The translations under genes were made by a program, and so were the position numbers. DNA of 64,000 nucleotides, taken from positions 32,001-96,000 of the forward strand of contig JASFYO010000003.1 of assembly GCA_045047305.1 (NCBI GenBank), in the 5' to 3' direction. Positions 3,033 to 15,827 of the stretch are shown here, one piece after another (positions within the stretch are counted from its first letter, which is position 1; every line of letters begins with the position of its first letter). Source of the stretch: Planctomycetota bacterium (GTDB lineage Bacteria > Planctomycetota > UBA1135). The notes beneath the pieces were generated by a model. The model was not told where the DNA came from and searched no databases. It saw only the letters and a program-made list of their open reading frames with translations.

Positions 3033-3878
3033 ATGGGTGAACGCCTAGCCGATTACGACCGTTTGAAGCTCGAAGAGCTCAATTACAACAGCTACCTGAA
3101 GATTCCGGAGCTGACTTCGCTGCAGGAATTGCGTAGTGATCCGGTGCACCACGATGAAATGTTTTTCATCGTCATCCACCAGAGTTTTGAGCTCTGGTTT
3201 AAGGAGATGCTCCACGAAGCCGGTCTTATGGTCCAGTGCTTTGAAAAAGGAGACATCGCCCACTCGCTGAAGGTTCTAAAGCGCATTCAGGCCATTTTGA
3301 CCTGCCTGACGCAGCAGATTCAGCTGCTCGGCACGCTAACCCCAGAGGAGTTTGCTGGCTTTCGTGAGGCCTTAGGTACAGGCAGCGGCTTTCAGTCGGT
3401 ACAGTTTCGTGAAATGGAATTCGTCTGTGGTCAGCGGGATCCTTGGTTCTTCCAGTTTTTTGAGAATCAGCCGGATGAACTCGCCCGCTTGAGAGCACGC
3501 TTTGAGGCTCCAAGCCTGTATGATTTTTTCCTGCGCGCCATGGCGCGGGAGGGATATGCCGTCCCCCAAGCCATTCTGGAACGGGATTTGTCGGAGACCC
3601 ACAGCATGAACGATGAACTCGTCATCGTTTTTCGCGATCTCTACCAGAACCCTGGAAATAACTATCACTGGGTACTCGCCTGCGAAGCCCTTCTCGATCT
3701 CGACACCATGTGGTCAAACTTCCGCTCCGCGCACATCCTGATGGTATCGCGCACGATTGGCGGCAAGAAGGGCACTGGCGGGTCTAGTGGCGTCCCATTC
3801 CTGGAATCGCGTCTGCCGCTGCGCTTTTTCCCCGAGTTATGGGAAATGCGGAATGCCGAATGGAACACCAATAAGTAA
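3033..3878 (+). CDS. kynA: Tryptophan 2,3-dioxygenase
   Basis: YNSYLKI, HDEMFFIVIHQSFELWFK, FREALGTGSGFQSVQFR, IGGKKGTGGSSG motifs. Confidence 0.95.
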   Translation: MGERLADYDRLKLEELNYNSYLKIPELTSLQELRSDPVHHDEMFFIVIHQSFELWFKEMLHEAGLMVQCFEKGDIAHSLKVLKRIQAILTCLTQQIQLLGTLTPEEFAGFREALGTGSGFQSVQFREMEFVCGQRDPWFFQFFENQPDELARLRARFEAPSLYDFFLRAMAREGYAVPQAILERDLSETHSMNDELVIVFRDLYQNPGNNYHWVLACEALLDLDTMWSNFRSAHILMVSRTIGGKKGTGGSSGVPFLESRLPLRFFPELWEMRNAEWNTNK

Positions 3879-3882
3879 AACC

Positions 3883-4674
3883 GTGACACTCTCTCAATCT
3901 CTTAACGGCAAGCACGCATTGGTGTGTGGTGCAAGCTCTGGCATCGGACGTGAAATCGCCTTAGCCATGGCGGCGCAAGGTGCCCGTTTGTCCTTTTTTG
4001 CTCGTTCCGCCGAAAAGTTAACCGTGCTTGCTGAAGAGTGCCTCGCTGTAGGCGCCGAAACAGCTGTCGGTTTCCCTGTCGATCTCGAAGATGCCGACGC
4101 CCTCGCCTCCGCCACTGCCAGCGTCTTGCAGCAGGCAGGTCCGGTACACATTCTGATTAACAATAGTGGTGGGCCTCCTGGGGGGCCTTTGCTGAACGCT
4201 TTCGTGGAGGACTTCCTTGCGCCTTTGCGCCGGCATTTGTTTGCCGCACATTATTTGGTGCAGCAGCTTGTCGCCGGGATGCAGGAAGAGGGATACGGTC
4301 GTATTCTCAATATTATTTCGACTTCCGTGAAAGAGCCGATTGCTGGATTAGGCGTTTCCAACACGGTGCGTGGGGCGGTTGCGGCATGGGCTAAAACTTT
4401 GTCCAAGGAGTTGCCTACTTGCGTCACCATTAACAATCTCTTACCCGGTTTTACTGCTACCGACCGATTGGATTCCTTGCGTGAAACCGTCGCCGGGCGT
4501 CAGGGGATTTCGGCCGACGAAGTCGAAGCCAACTGGCTGGCCACCGTGCCTGCCGGACGCTTAGGCGATCCGCGAGAACTCGCCGCGCTTGCTGCATTTC
4601 TCGCCAGCCCAGCAGGTGCCTTTGTGCGTGGCCAATCGATTGCGGTCGACGGAGGCCGCCTCAACGGAATCTAG
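3883..4674 (+). CDS. SDR family oxidoreductase (atypical SNxxR in place of YxxxK)
   Basis: CGASSGIG Rossmann motif, ILINNSGGP, SNTVRGAV, GRLGDPRE; start moved to GTG at 3883, just after the kynA stop. Confidence 0.88.
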   Translation: MTLSQSLNGKHALVCGASSGIGREIALAMAAQGARLSFFARSAEKLTVLAEECLAVGAETAVGFPVDLEDADALASATASVLQQAGPVHILINNSGGPPGGPLLNAFVEDFLAPLRRHLFAAHYLVQQLVAGMQEEGYGRILNIISTSVKEPIAGLGVSNTVRGAVAAWAKTLSKELPTCVTINNLLPGFTATDRLDSLRETVAGRQGISADEVEANWLATVPAGRLGDPRELAALAAFLASPAGAFVRGQSIAVDGGRLNGI

Positions 4675-4682
4675 ACCCCATC

Positions 4683-5921
4683 ATGCATTTCGACGTCTTC
4701 TTCTCCATTTGCCAAACACCGGTTGCGGGGTACGCCCCCGATGAAGCGACCATGTTTCGCAACTTCTTTGACCAGGTGAAGGTTGCCGACGACTTGGGCT
4801 ACGAATGTGCATGGATCGCGGAGTCGCACCTCTCCACCGAAGTGCAGAAGACCAACCGTCGCCCGGTGGTGCCTCACTTTCAGGGCGAGGTCGGGCTCAA
4901 CGTCGATATCACCCAGTTGGCGCACAAGGTTTTTGCAACCACCAAAAATATCGAGGTGGGAGCTGCAGTGATGAACATCGTGTGTAACGGTGGCCCGATT
5001 GCTGCCGCAGAGCGTTTGGCCTGTTTCTGCGCTCTGCACGGTCTCGACCCCAAGGAAACCCGCCGTTTGCGCATTGGATTTTCCATGGGACGCTTTGAGT
5101 TCATGAACCGCGCCTATGCTGTGGATTACCGCGATGCCATCGAAGAAGCTGCATGGCCGGCGTACAAAGGCCAGATGTTCCGTGAGGCTTGCGAGGTATT
5201 CCTGCGGCTACTCCGCGGCGATGTCCTCGATAGCACGCAAACTCCAGATACTGTGCTGACTCGTGCAAACTTCCGTTCCGATGAGGATTGGAACCGCGTG
5301 CAGGAAGCGTGGAAGACTGTCCACGGCGAGGATGCGCCCGACGCCATCCTATTCGCAAAACGCTGGCCTTTTGAATCCATTAAATTGATCCCGCAGGAGT
5401 GGCGGCGCGAGTTGTTGGACTTGATTGTGGGCTCGCATGATCCCGCATTGCAAGAACAGTTGAATGCAATTGCCCCGGTGAAGGTGTTCAACCTTTCGAT
5501 TACTTCCGAGGAGATCATTCATAAAACGCACGAGCGTTTAGCCACCACCTATCACCAAGATGGGGGCGCTTGGCGGCGTGAATACATGCCGCGCACGGTG
5601 ATGGTATTCCTCAATAACGAGGAAGGATTAAGTGGAGCGGAACAATCAGCCGCGGCTTCCAAAGAGGCTGAAGCGGCACTCTCGGAATACTGGAATGCCT
5701 TGGAGGGTACGCTAGACCCGAAAAAAGTCGCCGCTGCCACCGAAAACGCTTTGGTCGGAAATGCGCAGGAAATTGCGCAGCAAGTGCAAGAGCGCTTCCA
5801 CGCGGATGATCGCCTCATGTTGTGGTTCGATTTCTATAACCATGATTCGGCTCGGGTGATGCGCAACATGGAAGCCTTTCAGCGCGTTGTGATTCCTGCC
5901 GTAGAAGGAGCAGCAAAGTGA
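4683..5921 (+). CDS. LLM-class (luciferase-like) flavin-dependent monooxygenase
   Basis: QVKVADDLGYECAWIAESH, TKNIEVGAAV, LVGNAQEIAQQV, FQRVVIPA are typical of the bacterial luciferase-like TIM barrel. Confidence 0.85.
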   Translation: MHFDVFFSICQTPVAGYAPDEATMFRNFFDQVKVADDLGYECAWIAESHLSTEVQKTNRRPVVPHFQGEVGLNVDITQLAHKVFATTKNIEVGAAVMNIVCNGGPIAAAERLACFCALHGLDPKETRRLRIGFSMGRFEFMNRAYAVDYRDAIEEAAWPAYKGQMFREACEVFLRLLRGDVLDSTQTPDTVLTRANFRSDEDWNRVQEAWKTVHGEDAPDAILFAKRWPFESIKLIPQEWRRELLDLIVGSHDPALQEQLNAIAPVKVFNLSITSEEIIHKTHERLATTYHQDGGAWRREYMPRTVMVFLNNEEGLSGAEQSAAASKEAEAALSEYWNALEGTLDPKKVAAATENALVGNAQEIAQQVQERFHADDRLMLWFDFYNHDSARVMRNMEAFQRVVIPAVEGAAK

Positions 5922-7027
5922 GTGCTCCTTCCGGTAAACCTGCACGCCCACGCGATGCCATGTATCCACCTTCCCCGTTGGGCGTGAAGGAGGAGGGCGT
6001 GCCGACCGGGCGCGATGTCGAATGGGAACCGCTGGTCGACTTCCGCCGCGCCGGTGTTTCCGAAACCACTATTCATGGTGCGGTGGCATGGGCCCACGGG
6101 GACGAGGTCTTCCATAGCTTTGGCGGCAACGTTCTGTGTTATGGGCGCTCGATGATGAAACCATTGATGATGAAGGTATTCACTCAAGAGTTGGAAGCCG
6201 ATTTGGATTGGCGTCAGCGCGCGATTGCGGTTGCCTCACACAACGGCGATGCGCAGCACGTGGAAGCGGCGCAGTCCATCCTTGCGGAAAAGGATTGGGG
6301 ACTGATGCAGACGCCCCTGGATGTGCCCTTGGTGCAGTTTGGGCGCCAAGTCCGGCGTCCACGTCGGTGGTTTCACACCTGCAGTGGTGAACATTCCGCA
6401 TTGATCCGTGGGTGCCAACTCAAGGGTTGGGAAGAGGTCGGTTATCTCTTGCCGCAACACCCATTCTTCCACGCCTACGTGGAGCAAATCCGTCGTTATC
6501 TCGGCAGTGACTGGCGCCCTCTGCGTGTGGCGCGCGACGGTTGTGGATTACCAACTTTATCCAACACGGTGGTCGAGCTTGCACAGCTTTACGCTGGACT
6601 CGCGCGCGACCGTGATGAAGATTGGATTTGGGAAGCCATGCAGCGCTATCCCGATTTGGTTGGTGGCTTCAATCGCCTGGATTCCACCATCTTGAAATCA
6701 GGCAAAGGTCTGGTGCTGGCGAAAGAGGGCGCCGATGGCCTGCTTGGTCTTTCCATCGTGCATCCGGATTACCCCAAGGGGCTTGGCATCGTGGTGAAAA
6801 TCGCACACGGCTGGAATTCGCAAGCCACTTGGTACATCGCACGTGGCTTGCTTGGTGTTCTTGGAATCGAGTTGCGCAACCCCTACGCATTGCATCGTCA
6901 GAAAGCCTTTTTGGTGCCAGGAATGGTGCCCGAATCCATGCTCGGTAAACTTGCCGAGATTCCAACTTGGGATGAATGGGATCCCGACCGTGAACGTTAC
7001 GACTTCGATTGGGAGCCTTACCTATGA
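5918..7027 (+). CDS. L-asparaginase II (Rhizobium etli-type, class 3) homolog
   Basis: GRSMMKP, ASHNG, TCSGEH, DGCGLP, AKEGADG match the RSxxKP / SHxG / NCSGKH / DGCxxP / KxGADG motif series; overlaps the upstream gene by 4 nt. Confidence 0.85.
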   Translation: MSAPSGKPARPRDAMYPPSPLGVKEEGVPTGRDVEWEPLVDFRRAGVSETTIHGAVAWAHGDEVFHSFGGNVLCYGRSMMKPLMMKVFTQELEADLDWRQRAIAVASHNGDAQHVEAAQSILAEKDWGLMQTPLDVPLVQFGRQVRRPRRWFHTCSGEHSALIRGCQLKGWEEVGYLLPQHPFFHAYVEQIRRYLGSDWRPLRVARDGCGLPTLSNTVVELAQLYAGLARDRDEDWIWEAMQRYPDLVGGFNRLDSTILKSGKGLVLAKEGADGLLGLSIVHPDYPKGLGIVVKIAHGWNSQATWYIARGLLGVLGIELRNPYALHRQKAFLVPGMVPESMLGKLAEIPTWDEWDPDRERYDFDWEPYL

Positions 7028-8430
7028 GCAGAACCACTGATAACTGGATTGATGGAGCGATGGCTGCGCCGGAGAGCGGTGCTTACTTGGACAACATCGA
7101 TCCGAAAACTGGAACCGTGTGCGGCAAGATTGCGCGCAGTGGTGCCGCCGACGTCGAGCGTGCGGTTACAGCAGCAGCAGCAGCTCCGCGCTTGTCTGTA
7201 AACGACCGCAGTGCATTGTTGATTGCGGTTGCCGATGCCGTCGCCAAGCGAATTCCAGAGTTTGCAGCTGCCGAAGCGGAAGATAGTGGCAAAACCTTGG
7301 CTGCAACCACCAACGGCGACATCCCTCGGGCTTTAGATAACTTGCGCTACTTTGCCGCCGCAGTGCGTAGTGATCAAACTGCTTGCCATCAAATGGAAGA
7401 TGGTTTGAACTACACATTACGGCAGCCTTTGGGGGTGATTGCAGCGATTACCCCGTGGAATTTCCCACTACACCTATTTACTTGGAAGCTTGCGCCGGCC
7501 ATCGCCATGGGCAATGCCGTGGTGGCAAAACCAAGCGAGATGACCCCGTCTACCGCCACCATGTTCGCCGAGGTGTTTTCCGAAGTCGGCGCACCGAACG
7601 GTTTATTGAACGTGGTGCATGGCCTTGGTGCGGAAGCGGGGGAGCCGTTGGTGACCGATCCCCGTATCAAGGCAGTCTCTTTCACGGGTGGAACTGCTAC
7701 TGGGAAACGTATTGCTAGCCAAGCTGCGCCATTGCTGAAAAAGGTGAGCCTTGAGCTCGGTGGCAAAAACCCAAGCTTAGTTTTTGCCGACTGCGATGTA
7801 CACAAAGCAGCTGCTGGTGTGGCACGTGCCGCTTTCTTCAACACTGGGCAAGTTTGCCTTTGCGGTTCGCGCCTTTTGGTGGAGGCTTCGATTCACGACG
7901 ATTTTGTGGAAGCCCTGAAACAGCAAGTTGAGAGCGGGGATTGGACTCCCGGTGGCTCCATGGGGTCGTTGATCTCCTTTGAACACCGTGAAAAGGTTGC
8001 CTCCTACGTCGACCTTGCGCGGCAAGAAGGTGGCACGGTTGTTTTTGGCGGCCATAAGGTTGGCCCTGAAGGCGGTGCTTTTTTTGAACCGACACTGATC
8101 ACTGGTTTGCCCATCGATTGTCGTACAGCTACCGAGGAAATCTTTGGGCCGGTGGTTACGGTACACCCTTTCAGCACTGAAGCCGAGGCCTTGTCGATGG
8201 CGAACGCCGTGGACTATGGACTAGCATCTTCCATTTGGACTCAGGACATCACTCGCGCGCACCGTCTTGCCGCCGATATTGAGTCTGGCATGGTGTGGAT
8301 TAACACTTGGAATAAACGCGACTTCCGGGTGCCCTTCGGTGGCATGAAACAAAGTGGCGTCGGCCGGGAAGGTGGACGCTACGCCATGGAGTTCTTCTCG
8401 CAAGACCGCAACATCTGCATTCAACTTTGA
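7024..8430 (+). CDS. amnC: Aldehyde dehydrogenase, probably 2-aminomuconate 6-semialdehyde dehydrogenase (AmnC/ALDH8-like)
   Basis: ITPWNFP, LELGGKNP, GQVCLCGSR, EEIFGPV, RDFRVPFGGMKQSG; context next to amnBA; ATG at 7024 overlaps the previous stop. Confidence 0.8.
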   Translation: MSRTTDNWIDGAMAAPESGAYLDNIDPKTGTVCGKIARSGAADVERAVTAAAAAPRLSVNDRSALLIAVADAVAKRIPEFAAAEAEDSGKTLAATTNGDIPRALDNLRYFAAAVRSDQTACHQMEDGLNYTLRQPLGVIAAITPWNFPLHLFTWKLAPAIAMGNAVVAKPSEMTPSTATMFAEVFSEVGAPNGLLNVVHGLGAEAGEPLVTDPRIKAVSFTGGTATGKRIASQAAPLLKKVSLELGGKNPSLVFADCDVHKAAAGVARAAFFNTGQVCLCGSRLLVEASIHDDFVEALKQQVESGDWTPGGSMGSLISFEHREKVASYVDLARQEGGTVVFGGHKVGPEGGAFFEPTLITGLPIDCRTATEEIFGPVVTVHPFSTEAEALSMANAVDYGLASSIWTQDITRAHRLAADIESGMVWINTWNKRDFRVPFGGMKQSGVGREGGRYAMEFFSQDRNICIQL

Positions 8431-8432
8431 TC

Positions 8433-9341
8433 ATGAATGAGCCAGGAAGAATCGTTACCGGATGCCTTGCCCCGCATCCACCACACCTCGTATACGCTTC
8501 GAATCCAGAGCAAAATGAGCCCAGGTCGAGTGGCGCTGGAGCCTGGAAACCGTTGTTGGATGGCTACGCGCGGCTACGTGAGAGCATTCAAAACCGTGAG
8601 TACGATGTCATCATTGTGCATACCCCGCACTGGAAGACCACGGTCGGGCACCATCTTTTGGGGGTGCCCCATTTCGAAGGACTGTCGGTAGATCCAATCT
8701 TCCCCAATCTGTTCCGTTTTCATTTCGACCTGAATGTCGATGTGGATCTCGCTGAGGCCATTTGCGCCGAGGCCGAAACCGAAGGCCTGGTGATGGGCAT
8801 GATGCGTAACCCCGAGTTTCGGGTGGACTATGGAACCATCACCTCGAGCTACTTGGTGCGCCCAGAATTCGATTTGCCGATTGTGGCGATTAGTTCGGCG
8901 CGGACCTATTTCGACTACAGCGATGAAGCCGGCGAACGGGAAATGCTTGCGCTTGGTGCTGCAACCAAACGTGCGGTGGAGAAGTCCGGCAAGAAAGCCT
9001 TGTTGCTTGCAAGTTGCTCCTTGAGCCATCGGCACTTCACCGATGAGCCGTCGGATCCGGAAGACCCAAGTTTTGAAGGCATCTATAACGCCAATCAAGG
9101 CAAGTGGGACCGCCACATGATGGCCATGATGGAGGCAGGGGACACCGCCCGATTGCTTGAGGAAATGCCAGACTTTATTGCCCAAGCGATTTCAGAATGT
9201 CGCGATGGCAGCCTTACATGGATGCTTGCCGCTATGGATATGCCAACCATCCCCGCAAAGATTCATGGTTATGGAACGGTGATTGGAACCGGCAATGCGG
9301 TCGTGGAGTGGGATTTAGAAGGCGCAGAGGTGAAGGCATGA
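8433..9341 (+). CDS. amnB: 2-aminophenol 1,6-dioxygenase beta (catalytic) subunit, LigB family
   Basis: LAPHPPHLVY.NP.QNEPRS, HTPHW, SVDPIFPNLFRF, MMRNPEFRVDYGTIT, LSHRHF, GYGTVIGTGNAVVEW closely match recalled AmnB/CnbCb; the Fe-ligand His/His/Glu appear retained. Confidence 0.9.
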   Translation: MNEPGRIVTGCLAPHPPHLVYASNPEQNEPRSSGAGAWKPLLDGYARLRESIQNREYDVIIVHTPHWKTTVGHHLLGVPHFEGLSVDPIFPNLFRFHFDLNVDVDLAEAICAEAETEGLVMGMMRNPEFRVDYGTITSSYLVRPEFDLPIVAISSARTYFDYSDEAGEREMLALGAATKRAVEKSGKKALLLASCSLSHRHFTDEPSDPEDPSFEGIYNANQGKWDRHMMAMMEAGDTARLLEEMPDFIAQAISECRDGSLTWMLAAMDMPTIPAKIHGYGTVIGTGNAVVEWDLEGAEVKA

Positions 9342-10273
9342 GCGAAGGCTATGTTGTAGGTGCCTACTTGGTGCCAAATCAGCCGCTGCCTCTCCTGGCG
9401 CCGGAACAATCCCCTGCGTGGCAGTCCTTGCATGATTCCTACGCTAAGGTACGTGAGGAAATAGAAGCCTCGGAAGCCGATTTGATTCTCATTTTCAGCA
9501 CGCGTTGGGTGAGCATCATTGGACATCAAATGCAGGCTGATCCAGAGCCTGATTTCTGGGTCGTGGACGAAGACTTTCATCAGTTTGGCAGCCTGCACTA
9601 CAAGCTTAAGATTGATGCCGGTTTCGCCAGCCTTTACCGCGATTGTGCCCAAGCGCGTGGCTTGGAAGCGCGCACTGTGGCTTACCAAGGGTTCCCCATC
9701 GATGTCGGCAGCATCACGGCCTTAAAGCTGCTTAACCCCGACAACCGCATCCCTGCAGGCATCGTTTCTTGCAATGTGTATTCCGACCGCGCCGAAACTT
9801 TGGTGCTTGGAAAGGCTGCTGCCGATGCGATTAAAAAGAGTGGACGCAAAGTTATTCTGCTCGGAGTTTCTGCATTGTCCAATCGCATGTTTACGGAGTG
9901 GATTGATCCAAAAGAGGACCACATTCATTCATTGAAGGACGATGAATGGAATCGCAAAATCCTAGAACTGCTAGGTGAAGGGCGTTTGGAAGATGTTTCG
10001 CAACTCTCTCGCGAGTTTAGCCGCCAGGCGAATGGCGATTCCAAGATGAAGGCGATTTGGTGGATGGCGTCTGCGATGGGCCAAAGCAATGACTATCGCG
10101 GCACGGTGTTTGACTATCAGCCGGTTTGGGGGACGGGCGCGGCACTCGTTGGATTAACTCCTGCCACCAAACTCGGCGGCGGCTTGGAGTACGATGAAGA
10201 CGACACTGAGTATTACCGCGGGGATCGCAATGTCCTTGCTAGCGTCAAGAAAGAAGAGGTAAATCCATCATGA
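9338..10273 (+). CDS. amnA: 2-aminophenol 1,6-dioxygenase alpha subunit
   Basis: VVGAYLVPNQPLP, VDEDFHQFG, YQGFPIDVGSITA, IDPKEDHI...DDEWNRKILEL match recalled AmnA/CnbCa; ATGA overlap with the amnB stop. Confidence 0.87.
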   Translation: MSEGYVVGAYLVPNQPLPLLAPEQSPAWQSLHDSYAKVREEIEASEADLILIFSTRWVSIIGHQMQADPEPDFWVVDEDFHQFGSLHYKLKIDAGFASLYRDCAQARGLEARTVAYQGFPIDVGSITALKLLNPDNRIPAGIVSCNVYSDRAETLVLGKAAADAIKKSGRKVILLGVSALSNRMFTEWIDPKEDHIHSLKDDEWNRKILELLGEGRLEDVSQLSREFSRQANGDSKMKAIWWMASAMGQSNDYRGTVFDYQPVWGTGAALVGLTPATKLGGGLEYDEDDTEYYRGDRNVLASVKKEEVNPS

Positions 10274-10698
10274 GCCATCCCATCCGCACTCATAAAGCGC
10301 CTGATCCAGTCGGTGCCTACCCACACGCCCGACGCCACGGCGACCTCCTCTTTCTTTCTGGAGTAGGGCCGCGCCAAGCTGGCACCAATGCTATCCCGGG
10401 TGGCCCCATCCACGACGCGGATGGCAATCCCAACGATTACGATATCCAAGCTCAAACCGAAGCCGTCATCGCCAACGTGAAAGCGGTGCTCGAAGCTTGC
10501 GGTGCGACCTTAGATGATGTTCTAGATGTCACCGTCTATCTGATTGACATGGACCGTGACTTCAAAGGTTACAATAAGGTCTACGCGAAGCACTTCACCA
10601 CGGTTCAGGCTGCACGTACCACCTTGGCGATTCGCGCCCTGCCAACACCGATTGCGGTGGAGTTCAAAGTCATTGCTCAAGCGCCTTCCGCAAAATGA
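10270..10698 (+). CDS. amnD: RidA/YjgF family protein, probably 2-aminomuconate deaminase
   Basis: PVGAYPHARRHGDLLFLSGVGPR, DVTVYLIDMDRDF, ARTT...LPTPIAVEFKVIA; operon context. Confidence 0.8.
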   Translation: MSHPIRTHKAPDPVGAYPHARRHGDLLFLSGVGPRQAGTNAIPGGPIHDADGNPNDYDIQAQTEAVIANVKAVLEACGATLDDVLDVTVYLIDMDRDFKGYNKVYAKHFTTVQAARTTLAIRALPTPIAVEFKVIAQAPSAK

Positions 10699-11312
10699 TT
10701 ATTGATATCAGCCCTGTGATTAGTGCCCGGATTGGCGTTTGGCCAGGGGATACGGGGTTTTCGCGGGAGGTTTGCCTGGATACGAATCAAGGCGATCACA
10801 TCACCTTAAGCGCGATTCAAACCACGTTGCACTTAGGGGCTCATGTCGATGCGCCAAACCATTATCGTGCCGGCGCCAAGGCCATCCATGAACGTGCCTT
10901 GGAGCGTTATTACGGCCCATGCCAAGTGGTGCACGTTGACTTGCCACGAGGTACACGGATCCGCCCGGAGCATTTGAAGGTAGCGATTGAGGCTCCAAGA
11001 GTCTTATTTCATACTGGGAGTTTTCCAAACCCAGAGTCTTGGAACTCGGATTTCAATGCACTGAGCAAAGAATTAGTAGATGACTTGCAGGCGCAAGGGG
11101 TCGACCTGATTGGAATTGATACGCCCTCCATTGATTTGCAAGACGACAAGGTGTTGCAGTCCCACCAAGCGATTGCCAATCATGATATGGCCATCCTTGA
11201 AGGCGTCGTTCTCACCTCTGTTGAGCCTGGCTTGTACACTTTGTGCGCTTTGCCGTTGCCGCTTGAAGGCGCCGATGCCTCGCCGGTCCGCGCCGTTCTC
11301 ATCCGCGACTAA
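10695..11312 (+). CDS. kynB: Kynurenine formamidase (cyclase family)
   Basis: IIDIS...VWPGDT, HLGAHVDAP, GIDTPSID, ILEG, ALPLPLEGADASPVRAVL. Confidence 0.88.
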   Translation: MIIDISPVISARIGVWPGDTGFSREVCLDTNQGDHITLSAIQTTLHLGAHVDAPNHYRAGAKAIHERALERYYGPCQVVHVDLPRGTRIRPEHLKVAIEAPRVLFHTGSFPNPESWNSDFNALSKELVDDLQAQGVDLIGIDTPSIDLQDDKVLQSHQAIANHDMAILEGVVLTSVEPGLYTLCALPLPLEGADASPVRAVLIRD

Positions 11313-11582
11313 CTAGCGAGTCGCGTCTTCGGGATCTTCGCGCCAAGAACCGACCACGCGCTTCATCACCTGCTCGAAGTCCTCGGGTAAATCGGAGGGC
11401 GCTGGGTGATCGGTAATTTCACGGACCTGCCGATATTGCTTTAGGTAGGCGCGGCATGGGGGACACATCATGAGGTGCCCGCTGACGAAAATGCGCTCCC
11501 AAAGGCTTACCTCTCTATCCAGATAGCGATCTAGGGCCGCATAGAGGTGATCGCAACGGAGTAGGAGGTCTTTAGAAGGCAT
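11313..11582 (-). CDS. zf-HC2 (zinc-binding anti-sigma) domain protein
   Basis: C...LDRYLDREV...HLMMCPPC (HxxxCxxC); start set at MPSKD. Confidence 0.78.
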   Translation of the reverse strand: MPSKDLLLRCDHLYAALDRYLDREVSLWERIFVSGHLMMCPPCRAYLKQYRQVREITDHPAPSDLPEDFEQVMKRVVGSWREDPEDATR

Positions 11583-11693
11583 GGTCTTCCATATCTTCGC
11601 ATTTCCAGCTTGGGCGTGACAGAGTTTCTGGCTTGAAAGCAATCGGGCTTCGGTTATCCTCGGGACACCCCCCAAATCTGATAAGAGCCCATC

Positions 11694-12795: not shown

Positions 12796-14895
12796 TTAGC
12801 TTCCACGTCGACGACGCCCACTGCTTCGACGACGTCGCTCTTTAGAAGCTGCAGTTCCCTCGGGAGCTGCAGCTTCTTCTTTTTCAATCTCAGCTTTGAC
12901 GGCTTCGGCACCGCCTTCCAAGCCGAGTTCGGCGCGAACGTCAATCGGGCCGCGGTAAAGGCATGCCACGGCCTCGTCGATGGTGGCAGTGAGGCGTGGG
13001 TCGGAGTCCCCCAATAACTTATACAGGTGGCGTAAGTACTGCACCGTCATGCGTGCAACGCGGACGAAATCGCCAGGAGCTGCACTGGTGAAGCGCGACA
13101 GCTCGGTGAATGGGCGTCCCATCGCGTATTCGTAGATTGCGGGGCTCATCGAAGGGTCAATCTGTTTTAGCGAGCCGACCAAACCGCAATCGGTTTCGCG
13201 TTCTATGGCATAATCAATCACCCGTGCAGCATGATTCAAGAAACCTTTCATCGGGCGCAGTGCCTGGCGTGGATACTCATCGCGACGCCGCCCCTCATGA
13301 ATCACCGAGCCAATCAATCCGCACAATGCGGGTGCGTCGATGTCTTCAAACACGCCTTCGTACAACATCTCAGTGAGTTGTATTTCATAGCCAAACAGGT
13401 GTAGGCAGGTCCGTCCGCGGGCGAGAATCTCGCGCTCGGGCTTGATGTAGCCCATTTGCTCGAGAAACTGGAATCGCTTGTTGAGTAGTGCACGGACTTG
13501 ACGTCGGTTGTGCTCCTCGCGTTTTTTGGAATGCTCACGTGCTTGGAAGGCGGCAAAACTGTTCTCCCAAACTTCGGCGGCGTACTGATTGCCGGCGATG
13601 CCATGCAGATGTACCAAGGAGGCATAGTCCAAGTTGAACCGCGATGTGATCGGTTCCACGCGCCCCGCTTGAATGCGGTTGATCGGGGCGTCCATCACGT
13701 CGTCGAAATCGAGTACGGAATAGACCAACCCTTCGGCATCCATGCCTAGGCGTCCGGCACGGCCTGCCATCTGCAGGTAGTCACGCGTGCGCATGTAGTC
13801 GAAATCAATGCCATCGAATTTGCATAAACTGTCGAACACCACCGCGCGCGCTGGCATGTTGATGCCTAAAGCGAAGGTCTCGGTGGTGTAGAGGATGCGC
13901 AAAAGCCCGGTAGCGAACATGCGCTCCACCATTTCCTTTTGTAACGGCAACATGCCCGCATGGTGATATCCCACGCCGCGCGCCAGCATGCCACGCAAGG
14001 TGCCCATGGGGCCTCTACGGTCGTCAAAGCCGAACTCGGCCTTGCCCGCATCCCATAATTTCTCGAAGGCGGCAACGCCATCACGGTCGAGCAACTTGCG
14101 CGAGCGCGAGGTTTTGAGTGCTTTGGATTCACACAGCTTGCGTGAAAAGCAAAAGTACAGAATCGGCAGGCGCTCCTCTTTGACGAGCTCATCGACTAAT
14201 TCGCGGTCGTCACGTTGTTTCCAGTCACGGTCCTTTTTGTGCTCCTTGAAACGATTGCGCACTGGCTTCAACCGACTCGGCGGGAAGATTCCAGCCTTGG
14301 GGTGAAACAGGTAATGCTTCAAAGGAACCGGGCGCTTGGTTTCTTCCACCACGGTCAACGGACGTTTGCGTACTCGTTCTAGCCAAGCTGCGAACTGCCC
14401 CAAATTGTCAATGGTTGCGGAAAGCGCCACAATCACCACATTCTCTGGAAGGAACATCAAGGTTTCTTCCCACACCGAACCACGCTCGGGGTCGTCCATG
14501 AAGTGCACTTCATCGAACACCACCACACCGACATCGTTCAACTGACTTGCGTCTTCCACTAAAGTGTTGCGCAAGATTTCCGTCGTCATCACCATCACGC
14601 GTCCATTTGGATTCAGAGTGATGTCACCGGTGCTAAGCCCCACGCTATCAATCTCTGGATCCTCGGTGAAGTCGCGGAACTTCTGGTTGCTCAGCGCCTT
14701 GATGGGGGCGGTGTACAGTGCTCGCGTTCCCTTCTTCTGCGCGAGATGAATCGCGTATTCCGCAACCAAGGTTTTGCCAGCGCCAGTGGGGGCAGCCACC
14801 AGGACATTGTGGTGCGTATCCAATGCCGCCGCGGCTTTCCTCTGGAAGGAGGAGAGCGTGAAACCTTTGAATTCGGTGGGGCCATGACCCGTCAT
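12796..14895 (-). CDS. Ski2/HelY-like DEAD/DEAH-box RNA helicase
   Basis: APTGAGKT, TAPIKALSNQK, DEVH, LSAT, HHAG, TETFALGINMPA, QMAGRAGR, DSHCT-like C-terminus; start at 14895 or 14901 rather than 15183. Confidence 0.9.
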   Translation of the reverse strand: MTGHGPTEFKGFTLSSFQRKAAAALDTHHNVLVAAPTGAGKTLVAEYAIHLAQKKGTRALYTAPIKALSNQKFRDFTEDPEIDSVGLSTGDITLNPNGRVMVMTTEILRNTLVEDASQLNDVGVVVFDEVHFMDDPERGSVWEETLMFLPENVVIVALSATIDNLGQFAAWLERVRKRPLTVVEETKRPVPLKHYLFHPKAGIFPPSRLKPVRNRFKEHKKDRDWKQRDDRELVDELVKEERLPILYFCFSRKLCESKALKTSRSRKLLDRDGVAAFEKLWDAGKAEFGFDDRRGPMGTLRGMLARGVGYHHAGMLPLQKEMVERMFATGLLRILYTTETFALGINMPARAVVFDSLCKFDGIDFDYMRTRDYLQMAGRAGRLGMDAEGLVYSVLDFDDVMDAPINRIQAGRVEPITSRFNLDYASLVHLHGIAGNQYAAEVWENSFAAFQAREHSKKREEHNRRQVRALLNKRFQFLEQMGYIKPEREILARGRTCLHLFGYEIQLTEMLYEGVFEDIDAPALCGLIGSVIHEGRRRDEYPRQALRPMKGFLNHAARVIDYAIERETDCGLVGSLKQIDPSMSPAIYEYAMGRPFTELSRFTSAAPGDFVRVARMTVQYLRHLYKLLGDSDPRLTATIDEAVACLYRGPIDVRAELGLEGGAEAVKAEIEKEEAAAPEGTAASKERRRRSSGRRRRGS

Positions 14896-14901
14896 AGGCA
14901 T

Positions 14902-14930
14902 AGCATGGGTGGATACGGAGAGCGGGTCAA
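14902..14930 (-). promoter_or_regulatory. Putative sigma70 promoter of the helicase gene
   Basis: TTGACC-17 nt-CATGCT on the minus strand, 6 nt before ATG 14895. Confidence 0.5.
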
Positions 14931-14945
14931 GGTAGAACAGGGAAC

Positions 14946-15827
14946 ATGGGCCTCGCCACGCGTCCTTACCTACCGCATCAAAACTTGCTTGCGCTCCTTT
15001 TGTTCGCCACTCTTCCTGCTTGCGGTGATGCTCAATCCATGCAGCAGCCGCGCGCTCTGTCGGATTATCGTATCGATCAGGTGCCTCAGCTCCCCGGTGG
15101 ATTTCCGCCGGCCTGGGCTGCTCGCTTTGACCAAGTTCTGGCCGACGCCCCCGACATTGCCCTCGGCGATCCCTTGGCGTCACAAGTGGTGCACGACTTG
15201 CTCGCTCAGGTGGAATGGATTGACCCTAAAACTATTGAGGTGGAGCTGGCCCTTCCGGAGGGGGTGCGGGTGAACTTCTTGCCCAAGATTCCGGTTTTCG
15301 CGATTGCACGTGGGCAGACCCCGATTGCAACCCTCGCCCGCGACGGCACCCTCATTCCAAGCGGCTTTTCGGAGGCGACCATGCGCAGCTTGTTGTTTGT
15401 GTCGCTGGATGCGGATAAGGATTTACCCGAAGTCGGCCAGCGCTTTGCCGACCCTGTGGTGCAGGAGGCTTTTCGCCTTTGGGTGGCGGCCGACACGATT
15501 TACACGCAAACTGGATTACCGATTATGTCGATTCAGCGCCGTTCAGACTATCCGCAGGCGTCGCCGGGTATCGCGCCAGCCATGTCCTTCATTTTGGCTA
15601 ATGGAGTGGAGATTTCATGGGGCCGTGCGAGCGGCACTGCCGACCCAGCTGCAGTCAATCGCGACGGCAAGCCGCTCTCTTCCGCGCGCAGGATGCAGAG
15701 GCTAGCCCTGGTCCTGCACGCGTACCCTATGTTGCAAGGGGTCGGGCGCTTGGTGCTCGACGATCCTTTGGTGAAGGTGTTCGATGAACAGGGTGCTCTT
15801 CTGCCCTTGCCCGCAACGATTCGGTGA
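14946..15827 (+). CDS. Lipoprotein with possible FtsQ/DivIB-like POTRA and C-terminal region
   Basis: LPAC lipobox; WIDPKTIEVELALPEGVRVNFLPKIPVFAI...LARDGTLIP resembles the FtsQ POTRA-beta junction by eye. Confidence 0.5.
   Translation: MGLATRPYLPHQNLLALLLFATLPACGDAQSMQQPRALSDYRIDQVPQLPGGFPPAWAARFDQVLADAPDIALGDPLASQVVHDLLAQVEWIDPKTIEVELALPEGVRVNFLPKIPVFAIARGQTPIATLARDGTLIPSGFSEATMRSLLFVSLDADKDLPEVGQRFADPVVQEAFRLWVAADTIYTQTGLPIMSIQRRSDYPQASPGIAPAMSFILANGVEISWGRASGTADPAAVNRDGKPLSSARRMQRLALVLHAYPMLQGVGRLVLDDPLVKVFDEQGALLPLPATIR

Follow-up and report, generated by a model that had tools for sequence, protein, structure and literature searches.

A conserved marine operon predicted to carry tryptophan carbon through 2-aminophenol without kynureninase

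The region described here lies at positions 3033 to 11312, on the + strand, of a 64,000-nucleotide (nt) stretch of contig JASFYO010000003.1 (the whole stretch is referred to as the window) from a marine planctomycete (UBA1135). It holds nine open reading frames (ORFs) on that strand, encoding, in order, KynA, a short-chain dehydrogenase/reductase (SDR), a luciferase-like monooxygenase (LLM), AsnII, AmnC, AmnB, AmnA, RidA, and KynB, and its gene content suggests a route of tryptophan catabolism that would pass from kynurenine to 2-aminophenol without kynureninase. The first gene, kynA (3033 to 3878), encodes a short bacterial form of tryptophan 2,3-dioxygenase (TDO; 281 residues) that matches PF03301 at 175 bits and TIGR03036 at 277 bits, the latter under the cut-off of 391. 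The ORF of the SDR (3853 to 4674; adh_short/adh_short_C2), a tyrosine-less protein predicted to be an NAD(P)H-dependent lower-pathway reductase, opens at 3757, within kynA, and its likely start is ATG 3853 or GTG 3883. It is followed by the LLM (4683 to 5921), a divergent luciferase-like (group C flavin) monooxygenase of 412 residues that scores 35.6 bits against PF00296 (cut-off, 27.9), and by AsnII (5918 to 7027), a class-3-asparaginase homolog of 369 residues that scores 156 bits against PF06089 (cut-off, 25). Four genes related to 2-aminophenol catabolism come next: amnC (7024 to 8430), for a 2-aminomuconate 6-semialdehyde dehydrogenase (TIGR03216 at 532 bits, under the cut-off); amnB (8427 to 9341) and amnA (9338 to 10273), for the catalytic beta subunit and the alpha subunit, both LigB proteins, of a 2-aminophenol 1,6-dioxygenase; and a gene for a RidA-family, AmnD-like 2-aminomuconate deaminase (10270 to 10698; PF01042 at 85 bits). 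The last gene is kynB (10695 to 11312), encoding an arylformamidase (kynurenine formamidase) that matches PF04199 at 62 bits and TIGR03035 at 204 bits, just below the cut-off of 223.

The first-pass annotation of this DNA had described nine genes on one strand with overlapping or near-adjacent ends, and all nine ORFs were recovered at the positions given above, with their junctions read from the sequence. Five junctions are 4-nt start/stop overlaps, namely GTGA at LLM/AsnII and ATGA at AsnII/amnC, amnB/amnA, amnA/RidA, and RidA/kynB. The spacer between the SDR gene and the LLM gene is 8 nt. The amnC ORF opens at TTG 7009, and its ATG at 7024 overlaps the AsnII stop; the amnC/amnB junction is either a 4-nt overlap (TTG start) or a 2-nt gap (ATG 8433). 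The operon is flanked by unrelated genes on the opposite strand, which encode an EVE-domain protein and an anti-sigma factor. A scan of the region for consensus promoters and terminators gave counts at chance level, and a sequencing-run search with positions 3033 to 11312 listed no RNA run, while one run of unspecified kind had 0.28 of the words.

Gene order was compared over 80 genome loci around LLM homologs, with the nine window proteins as tblastn queries. The order SDR-LLM-AsnII-amnC-amnB-amnA-RidA-kynB is kept across phyla. Among the 44 loci with at least 7 kb of sequence downstream of LLM, AsnII lies downstream in 37, amnC in 39, amnB in 33, amnA in 32, RidA in 29, and kynB, which closes the cluster, in 28; AsnII, amnC, amnB, and amnA occur there together in 32/44 loci, and all six genes in 24/44. 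No more than 200 nt separate the LLM stop from the AsnII start in 47/70 loci and the SDR end from the LLM start in 47/68. A kynA ortholog is present upstream of SDR-LLM in 26 of the 60 loci with at least 2 kb upstream, mostly in Planctomycetota, and a long-form TDO is found upstream in five further loci. When the other 598 ORFs from these loci were clustered, no further gene conserved across phyla was found, the inserts being helicases, TPR proteins, and the like. Because the identical gene order recurs in other phyla, the arrangement is not due to chance; the operon is real and conserved.

A metagenome set comprised 80 loci around P0170, an AsnII ortholog named as Poseidoniaceae. LLM lies directly upstream of AsnII in 65/65 cases, and the metagenome loci retain amnC (48/48), amnB (48/48), amnA (47/48), RidA (47/48), and, less uniformly, the SDR (35/48). 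Over 160 loci, amnA and RidA form one in-frame ORF of ∼465 residues in 69 (e.g., L012, L016, L018, and L113 to L178), although they are separate genes in the window, and no in-frame LLM-AsnII fusion was found in any (0/160).

The distribution of these genes was assessed in three samples, most of whose members are incomplete metagenome-assembled genomes (MAGs) and in which related genomes are not independent. The first consisted of 301 Planctomycetota genomes drawn evenly and without regard to the feature. At the ortholog limits used for this sample (LLM, E ≤ 1e-166; AsnII, at least 61% identity; AmnB, at least 52% identity), orthologs of LLM, AsnII, and AmnB were found in exactly the same 11 genomes, which span 7 families. 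AsnII-family matches outside the 11 occurred in 14 other genomes, all at ≤35% identity. TDO was present in 11/11 cluster genomes versus 139/301 overall, while kynureninase over the TIGR01814 cut-off (246 bits) was present in 0/11 versus 29/301 overall; in the 11 cluster genomes, no kynureninase match was obtained even at E ≤ 1e-40. One family (f24) is split between the two gene sets, with the LLM set in 3 of its 10 genomes and kynureninase in the remaining 7. The LLM profile matched 12 of the 301 genomes, the twelfth being G216, and none of 28 kynureninase-bearing genomes is among these 12. G216 itself, with an LLM match and a kynureninase, was considered as a counterexample and rejected, as its LLM is a paralogue of 43% identity in a different gene setting and the genome, which also has a complete classical kynurenine cluster, has no orthologs of AsnII or AmnB.

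The second sample, 116 genomes from the phylum of G035 (a genome itself picked via LLM), gave a similar picture. LLM and AsnII were found in the same 15 genomes, AsnII was found nowhere else among the 116 even at E ≤ 1e-20, and kynureninase was found in 22 genomes, with no overlap with the 15. In G021, one of the 15, AsnII is represented by no more than an 84-residue piece, beside an LLM gene with an internal TAG. In the third sample, 50 LLM-bearing genomes from several phyla, an AsnII ortholog (65 to 95% identity) was present in 46, and kynureninase over the cut-off was present in none (best score, 45 bits). The window's own genome, which is 87.66% complete, yielded no kynureninase (TIGR01814) and no 3-hydroxyanthranilate dioxygenase (HAAO; TIGR03037), and tblastn with the kynurenine 3-monooxygenase (KMO), kynureninase (KynU), ACMSD, and HAAO-like proteins of G216 found no match there. 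These counts bear out two expectations of the first-pass annotation, that the cluster genes would co-occur across genomes (LLM, AsnII, and AmnB in the same 11/301; LLM and AsnII in the same 15/116) and that kynureninase would be missing from the genomes that hold them (0/11, 0/15, and 0/50); nor was the kynU or kmo gene that could have undercut it found elsewhere in the window's genome by profile search or tblastn. The co-occurrence of LLM, AsnII, and AmnB is a strong signal, and the anticorrelation with kynureninase is supportive only.

Separately, 31 Planctomycetota genomes carry a kynureninase-like gene that scores 140 to 170 bits against the same model (cut-off, 246); none is among the 11 cluster genomes. 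Most or all of the 31 also have TDO, as judged from lists compared by eye. These genes below the cut-off may constitute a divergent kynureninase clade.

The ring-cleavage module was compared with solved structures. The closest solved relative of AmnB is 8ihg_A (348 bits; E = 5e-103; residues 7 to 299), followed by 3vsg_B (E = 2e-101), and the stretches APHPPH, PHW, SH.HF, and E..(S/D)G..TWM align with 8ihg_A; we take these regions to contain the His/His/Glu iron ligands. AmnA, encoded by a separate gene whose start overlaps the amnB stop, is related to 7txy_A (E = 2e-55) and 3vsg_A (E = 1e-46). The best solved relatives of AmnC are 2-aminomuconate 6-semialdehyde dehydrogenases (4i1w; 438 bits; E = 3e-130), and that of RidA is the 2-aminomuconate deaminase 6izh (E = 1e-26). 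Because AmnB, AmnA, AmnC, and RidA all match solved enzymes of the 2-aminophenol pathway best, the module is, by homology, a true 2-aminophenol module. The assignments of these four genes in the first-pass annotation are thus well supported by solved structures (8ihg, 7txy, 4i1w, and 6izh).

AsnII aligns with the Rhizobium etli asparaginase structures ReAIV and ReAV at E = 4e-15 (best domain alignment, 8cly at 58 bits), and no NCBIfam model matches it. Four residues, S78, K81, S107, and K269, are invariant in 57/57 sequences and correspond to ReAV Ser48, Lys51, Ser80, and Lys263; C155 and C209, at the metal-site positions of ReAV Cys135 and Cys189, are each kept in 54/57. AsnII therefore shares with ReAV and ReAIV (7os3 and 8cly) the Pfam family, both Ser-Lys tandems, and both metal cysteines, while differing from ReAV in its N- and C-terminal extensions and in one metal-site residue discussed below. 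Ser48 is given as the ReAV nucleophile (PMC8602277), and the metal is described as holding asparagine by its alpha-amino and alpha-carboxy groups (PMC12951835). AsnII looks like a competent hydrolase for a substrate with an aspartyl or asparaginyl head group. In kynurenine with an oxygen inserted next to its ketone, the ester carbonyl would occupy the position of the amide carbonyl of asparagine, and the genomic context of AsnII argues for a predicted substrate other than free l-asparagine. The protein belongs to a separate and very conserved subfamily, with 146/369 positions at least 97% conserved across phyla. Its relatives fall into 1621 clusters at E ≤ 1e-50, one of which holds 2097 member sequences, and the orthologs of 71 to 76% identity carry the source names Myxococcota, Alphaproteobacteria, "Candidatus Poseidoniaceae," and Thermoplasmatota.

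The LLM is more divergent. A sequence search against solved structures returned a single weak match, the luciferase 8cbb (E = 6e-4). Its AlphaFold2 model (pLDDT, 84.5) has the luciferase TIM-barrel fold, and Foldseek searches with that model retrieved 2i7g, luciferase 1luc, RslO1 (7bip), and 3fgc, among others, at a probability of 1.00 and 12 to 16% identity (an OX domain was also listed). The type II Baeyer-Villiger monooxygenase (BVMO) 4uwm appeared at rank 48 (E = 1e-9) with 12% identity, a likeness at the level of fold only. Among 79 orthologs, 116/412 positions are at least 97% conserved. The family is large, with relatives of 58 to 98% identity mainly in uncultured Planctomycetota and Myxococcota; 5348 sequence clusters were retrieved at E ≤ 0.001, general LLMs included, and the look-alike clusters in the ESM Atlas are all unnamed, Thermoplasmatota being among them. 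Attack on a carbonyl by a flavin peroxide has precedent in the luciferase-fold family, both in luciferase itself and in the diketocamphane type II BVMOs. From its fold and its neighbors, we infer that the LLM is a candidate Baeyer-Villiger oxygenase of kynurenine or N-formylkynurenine.

Other LLM homologs were observed in settings unlike that of the window. The G216 paralogue (locus L083; G216:C41, 4954 to 9417; 43% identity) lies between an FAD monooxygenase on one side and a cNMP-binding protein and an aminotransferase on the other. In locus L033 (G021:C85, 9519 to 11005), the LLM gene with its in-frame TAG is followed only by the 84-residue AsnII piece already mentioned, which may reflect gene decay or faulty assembly. 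A search for longer LLM forms gave just one, annotated in a eukaryote (P0241; eukprot, Andalucia godoyi; 1501 residues), which was set aside as unrelated to the cluster. Its N-terminal LLM domain is 44% identical to the LLM of the window and precedes GATase-like and ApbE FMN-transferase domains; the whole may be a merged gene model.

The SDR carries S169-N170-T-V-R173 (S-N-x-x-R) in place of the YxxxK motif, and this substitution is conserved in 58 orthologs. Its nearest solved relatives (5va8, 5vps, and 5idx) share S-N-x-x-R and have no assigned function; BacG (3u49) is next. BacG is an ene-reductase, and both BacG/YwfH and the SDR 6jh7 use NADPH to reduce conjugated C=C bonds. An ortholog of the SDR occurs in 25/28 kynureninase-bearing Planctomycetota genomes (exactly one per genome; 44 to 63% identity). 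In 17 of those 25 genomes it directly adjoins an amnC-like aldehyde dehydrogenase (ALDH) gene, and in one it directly adjoins kynA. In G216, SDR-amnC-RidA lies beside kynB-kynA-KMO-KynU-ACMSD, far from the LLM paralogue of that genome. Because it is present in most kynureninase-type genomes and often beside amnC, the SDR is predicted to be a member of the lower pathway common to the LLM-type and kynureninase-type clusters. The first-pass annotation had held that two unexplained genes fill the chemical gap exactly and had left the SDR unassigned; LLM and AsnII keep that predicted role, and the SDR finds its place in the shared lower pathway.

As to the reaction it might catalyze, the decarboxylase, hydratase, and aldolase of the amn lower pathway are all missing from the cluster. 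In the window's genome, no 4-hydroxy-2-oxovalerate aldolase (TIGR03217) exceeded the cut-off (best score, 49 bits); for the decarboxylase and hydratase, the search covered the cluster. Because the aldolase branch is missing, the SDR is best read as a reductase of 2-oxohex-3-enedioate or 2-aminomuconate toward 2-oxoadipate. BacG/YwfH (3u49) and the SDR 6jh7 are its nearest characterized relatives, from which it would differ in acting on one of these two compounds.

Taken together, the genes outline a complete predicted route, independent of kynureninase, that leads from tryptophan to a C6 dicarboxylate. KynA would open the indole ring to give N-formylkynurenine, and KynB would remove formate, both steps being assigned by strong homology. 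The LLM, with reduced flavin and O2, would oxygenate kynurenine or N-formylkynurenine, placing the new oxygen between the aryl ring and the ketone carbon; flavin-peroxide attack followed by aryl migration would yield the 2-aminophenyl ester of the beta-carboxyl of aspartate. The cluster itself has no flavin reductase gene, so a housekeeping enzyme is assumed to supply the reduced flavin. AsnII would then hydrolyze this ester, or the N4-(2-hydroxyphenyl)asparagine formed from it by an O-to-N acyl shift, to l-aspartate and 2-aminophenol. The shift proposed in the first-pass annotation is an optional detail, as direct hydrolysis of the ester would suffice. By strong homology again, AmnAB would convert 2-aminophenol to 2-aminomuconate semialdehyde, AmnC would oxidize this to 2-aminomuconate, and the RidA-type deaminase would give 2-oxohex-3-enedioate (4-oxalocrotonate). 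Finally, the SDR could act on 2-oxohex-3-enedioate (or on 2-aminomuconate), reducing its C=C bond on the way to 2-oxoadipate, in place of the decarboxylase/hydratase/aldolase branch. The mass balance closes arithmetically (kynurenine + O + H2O = aspartate + 2-aminophenol). AmnAB needs a 2-aminophenol, which LLM and AsnII would therefore have to make from kynurenine.

We are reasonably confident that the genes of this operon carry tryptophan carbon through 2-aminophenol without kynureninase, and the gene pattern supports the prediction that, from kynurenine to 2-aminomuconate semialdehyde, LLM, AsnII, and AmnAB take the place of KMO, KynU, HAAO, and ACMSD. The simplest chemistry, and on balance the probable one, would be a Baeyer-Villiger oxygenation and then hydrolysis of the ester or amide to aspartate and 2-aminophenol. 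The fullest version of the proposal, in which an LLM BVMO, a class-3 asparaginase, and an SDR leading to 2-oxoadipate make up a route widespread in marine bacteria and, by source names, in Marine Group II archaea, is put forward more tentatively, with slightly less than even confidence. For the path from kynurenine to aspartate and 2-aminophenol as first proposed, phyletic profile and synteny thus uphold the gene pattern, and the chemistry remains a prediction. The literature searched (subscription journals and preprint supplements were outside its scope) contained no such route, no Baeyer-Villiger reaction of kynurenine, and no cluster of amnB with kynA/kynB, and a term search of an mBio paper on an actinobacterial 2-aminophenol microcompartment returned neither kynurenine nor tryptophan. 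The route, which was not found in print, most likely varies the kynurenine pathway with members of known enzyme families, two or three of them serving new functions.

Several observations weigh against this interpretation. AsnII is absent from 4 of the 50 LLM genomes altogether and from the neighborhood of LLM in 7 of the 44 loci with enough flanking sequence; all of these are MAGs. The anticorrelation of LLM with kynureninase is statistically weak, as chance alone would give an overlap of ∼1 genome of 301 and ∼3 of 116, among genomes that are related. All carriers seen are uncultured, and the incompleteness of the window's genome means that the absence of kynureninase-route genes from it is not proven. 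The activities of the LLM and AsnII are predictions. The LLM is only 12 to 16% identical to any solved enzyme, and we know of no signature that separates BVMOs from hydroxylases within the luciferase-like fold. No flavin reductase gene lies in the cluster, and no HpaC-type or FMN_red-type flavin reductase (PF01613 and PF03358) was found in the window's genome, which has two nitroreductase-family genes outside the cluster. In AsnII, E158 stands in place of the zinc-binding Lys138 of ReAV in 54/57 sequences; metal binding is therefore not assured. Lastly, homologs of kynA and kynB were each found in 0/80 archaeal-type metagenome loci within 10 kb. The conservation of LLM and AsnII with kynA and amnAB that had been expected from the window alone accordingly holds for amnAB and kynB, and for kynA in Planctomycetota, and fails, within 10 kb, for kynA and kynB on the archaeal-type contigs.

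That last result speaks for a different function of the core: LLM-AsnII-AmnCBA-RidA could serve to break down another aminophenol conjugate (N-acylated or esterified), whether a xenobiotic or a natural product, with AsnII as an aryl acylamidase and kynA and kynB as mere neighbors. Classical amn clusters do serve xenobiotic pathways (see also PMC3790839). TDO is nevertheless present in every Planctomycetota carrier (11/11), kynB closes the cluster in 28/44 loci (in the window, with an ATGA overlap with RidA), and the classical kynurenine pathway of G216 uses the same SDR-amnC-RidA module. Since the carriers have no kynureninase, the product of KynA and KynB would otherwise be a dead end, and we regard a non-kynurenine substrate as unlikely. 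The same low standing is given to a scheme that shares its stoichiometry, gene set, and phyletic pattern with the proposed route, in which the LLM is a kynurenine 3-hydroxylase, AmnAB cleaves 3-hydroxykynurenine (itself an o-aminophenol), and AsnII splits the acyl C-C bond to yield aspartate and 2-aminomuconate semialdehyde. The scissile carbonyl would then be as far from the alpha-carbon as in asparagine. AmnB, however, is close to enzymes for small 2-aminophenols (348 bits), enzymes of the luciferase-like class seldom hydroxylate aromatic rings, and we know of no C-C hydrolysis by the Ser-Lys glutaminase/beta-lactamase-like fold.

Mechanistic considerations make it very improbable that AsnII is a kynureninase free of pyridoxal phosphate (PLP), forming anthranilate and alanine, with the LLM as a decarboxylating hydroxylase that converts anthranilate to 2-aminophenol in the manner of salicylate hydroxylase. 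This scheme would explain the same gene set and the absence of kynureninase, but cleavage between C-beta and C-gamma needs stabilization of a carbanion, which PLP affords and a Ser-Lys hydrolase does not, and decarboxylating hydroxylases are group A flavoenzymes and not LLMs. A further alternative concerns the SDR, which might supply the LLM with reduced flavin as an NAD(P)H:flavin reductase instead of acting as a reductase in the lower pathway. Its closeness to the LLM start in 47/68 loci, the lack of a classical flavin reductase family in the window's genome, and its lack of the Tyr and Lys that serve in carbonyl reduction are all compatible with such a role. We nonetheless doubt it, given that orthologs occur in 25/28 kynureninase genomes, none of the 28 having an LLM match, that 17 of those 25 orthologs adjoin an amnC-like ALDH gene, and that the SDR of G216 is far from the LLM paralogue.

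The proposed route through LLM, AsnII, and AmnAB combines features of several known systems. With the amn pathway (Pseudomonas sp. AP-3 and Burkholderia xenovorans LB400) and the cnb pathway (Comamonas), it shares homologs of AmnB, AmnA, AmnC, and RidA, encoded by four adjacent genes on one strand, here in the order amnC-amnB-amnA-RidA. Whereas the substrate of those pathways derives from nitrobenzene or aniline derivatives, that of the present operon would come from tryptophan, and the SDR stands where a decarboxylase, hydratase, and aldolase would be expected. With the classical kynurenine pathway (Burkholderia cenocepacia and G216), the operon has in common the entry (KynA and KynB) and the exit (2-aminomuconate semialdehyde dehydrogenase, deaminase, and SDR), while LLM, AsnII, and AmnAB would take over from the middle section of KMO, KynU, HAAO, and ACMSD. 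The side chain would be released as aspartate and not as alanine plus CO2. Because 3-hydroxyanthranilate would never be formed, the proposed route would provide no quinolinate for NAD.

There is also precedent for the central chemistry. In the 4-hydroxyacetophenone route, 4-hydroxyacetophenone monooxygenase (HAPMO) and an arylesterase convert an aryl ketone to an aryl ester and then to a phenol (hydroquinone). The predicted route likewise would oxygenate a ketone to an aryl ester that is hydrolyzed to free a phenol for ring cleavage. HAPMO is an FAD/NADPH type I enzyme, in contrast to the luciferase-like LLM, which shares its fold with the type II BVMOs (diketocamphane enzymes) and is only ∼12% identical to 4uwm, and the hydrolase here is a class-3-asparaginase homolog and not an alpha/beta esterase.

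Bacteria are known to dispose of kynurenine by way of anthranilate, kynurenate, or 3-hydroxyanthranilate. If correct, the present proposal would add a fourth way and would give a first function to a large conserved LLM subfamily and to the AsnII subfamily. It would introduce two new enzyme activities and fill one gene-less step, the reduction to 2-oxoadipate. The amn pathway, viewed as "xenobiotic," would gain a natural role, and the frequency in ocean microbes of 2-aminophenol dioxygenases, enzymes known from pollutant degraders, would be explained. A yield of aspartate in place of alanine, with no supply of NAD by quinolinate, would also bear on models of uncultured marine heterotrophs. The proposed route is directly testable with cloned genes and commercial kynurenine.

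Some features around the cluster deserve brief mention. On archaeal-type contigs (L113, 16429 to 19955; L137, 6178 to 8698 and 17249 to 18646), a BD-FAE/Abhydrolase_3 hydrolase is encoded adjacent to the SDR; it could be a non-homologous formamidase. A TPR-like ORF of ∼280 residues lies directly upstream of LLM on these contigs, which also encode an amino-acid permease (with EF-hands in L113). The 273-residue ORF upstream of LLM in L113 was considered as a hidden TDO and rejected, as BLASTP against KynA gave an E value of 0.05 and the protein is TPR-like. Within the window, the anti-sigma factor gene (zf-HC2; 11313 to 11675, − strand) abuts kynB. Farther downstream, a gene for a Ski2-like DEAD/DSHCT helicase (12796 to 15183, − strand) is a conserved neighbor in the closest Planctomycetota relatives, at eight loci (L001 to L004, L007, L009, L015, and L032).

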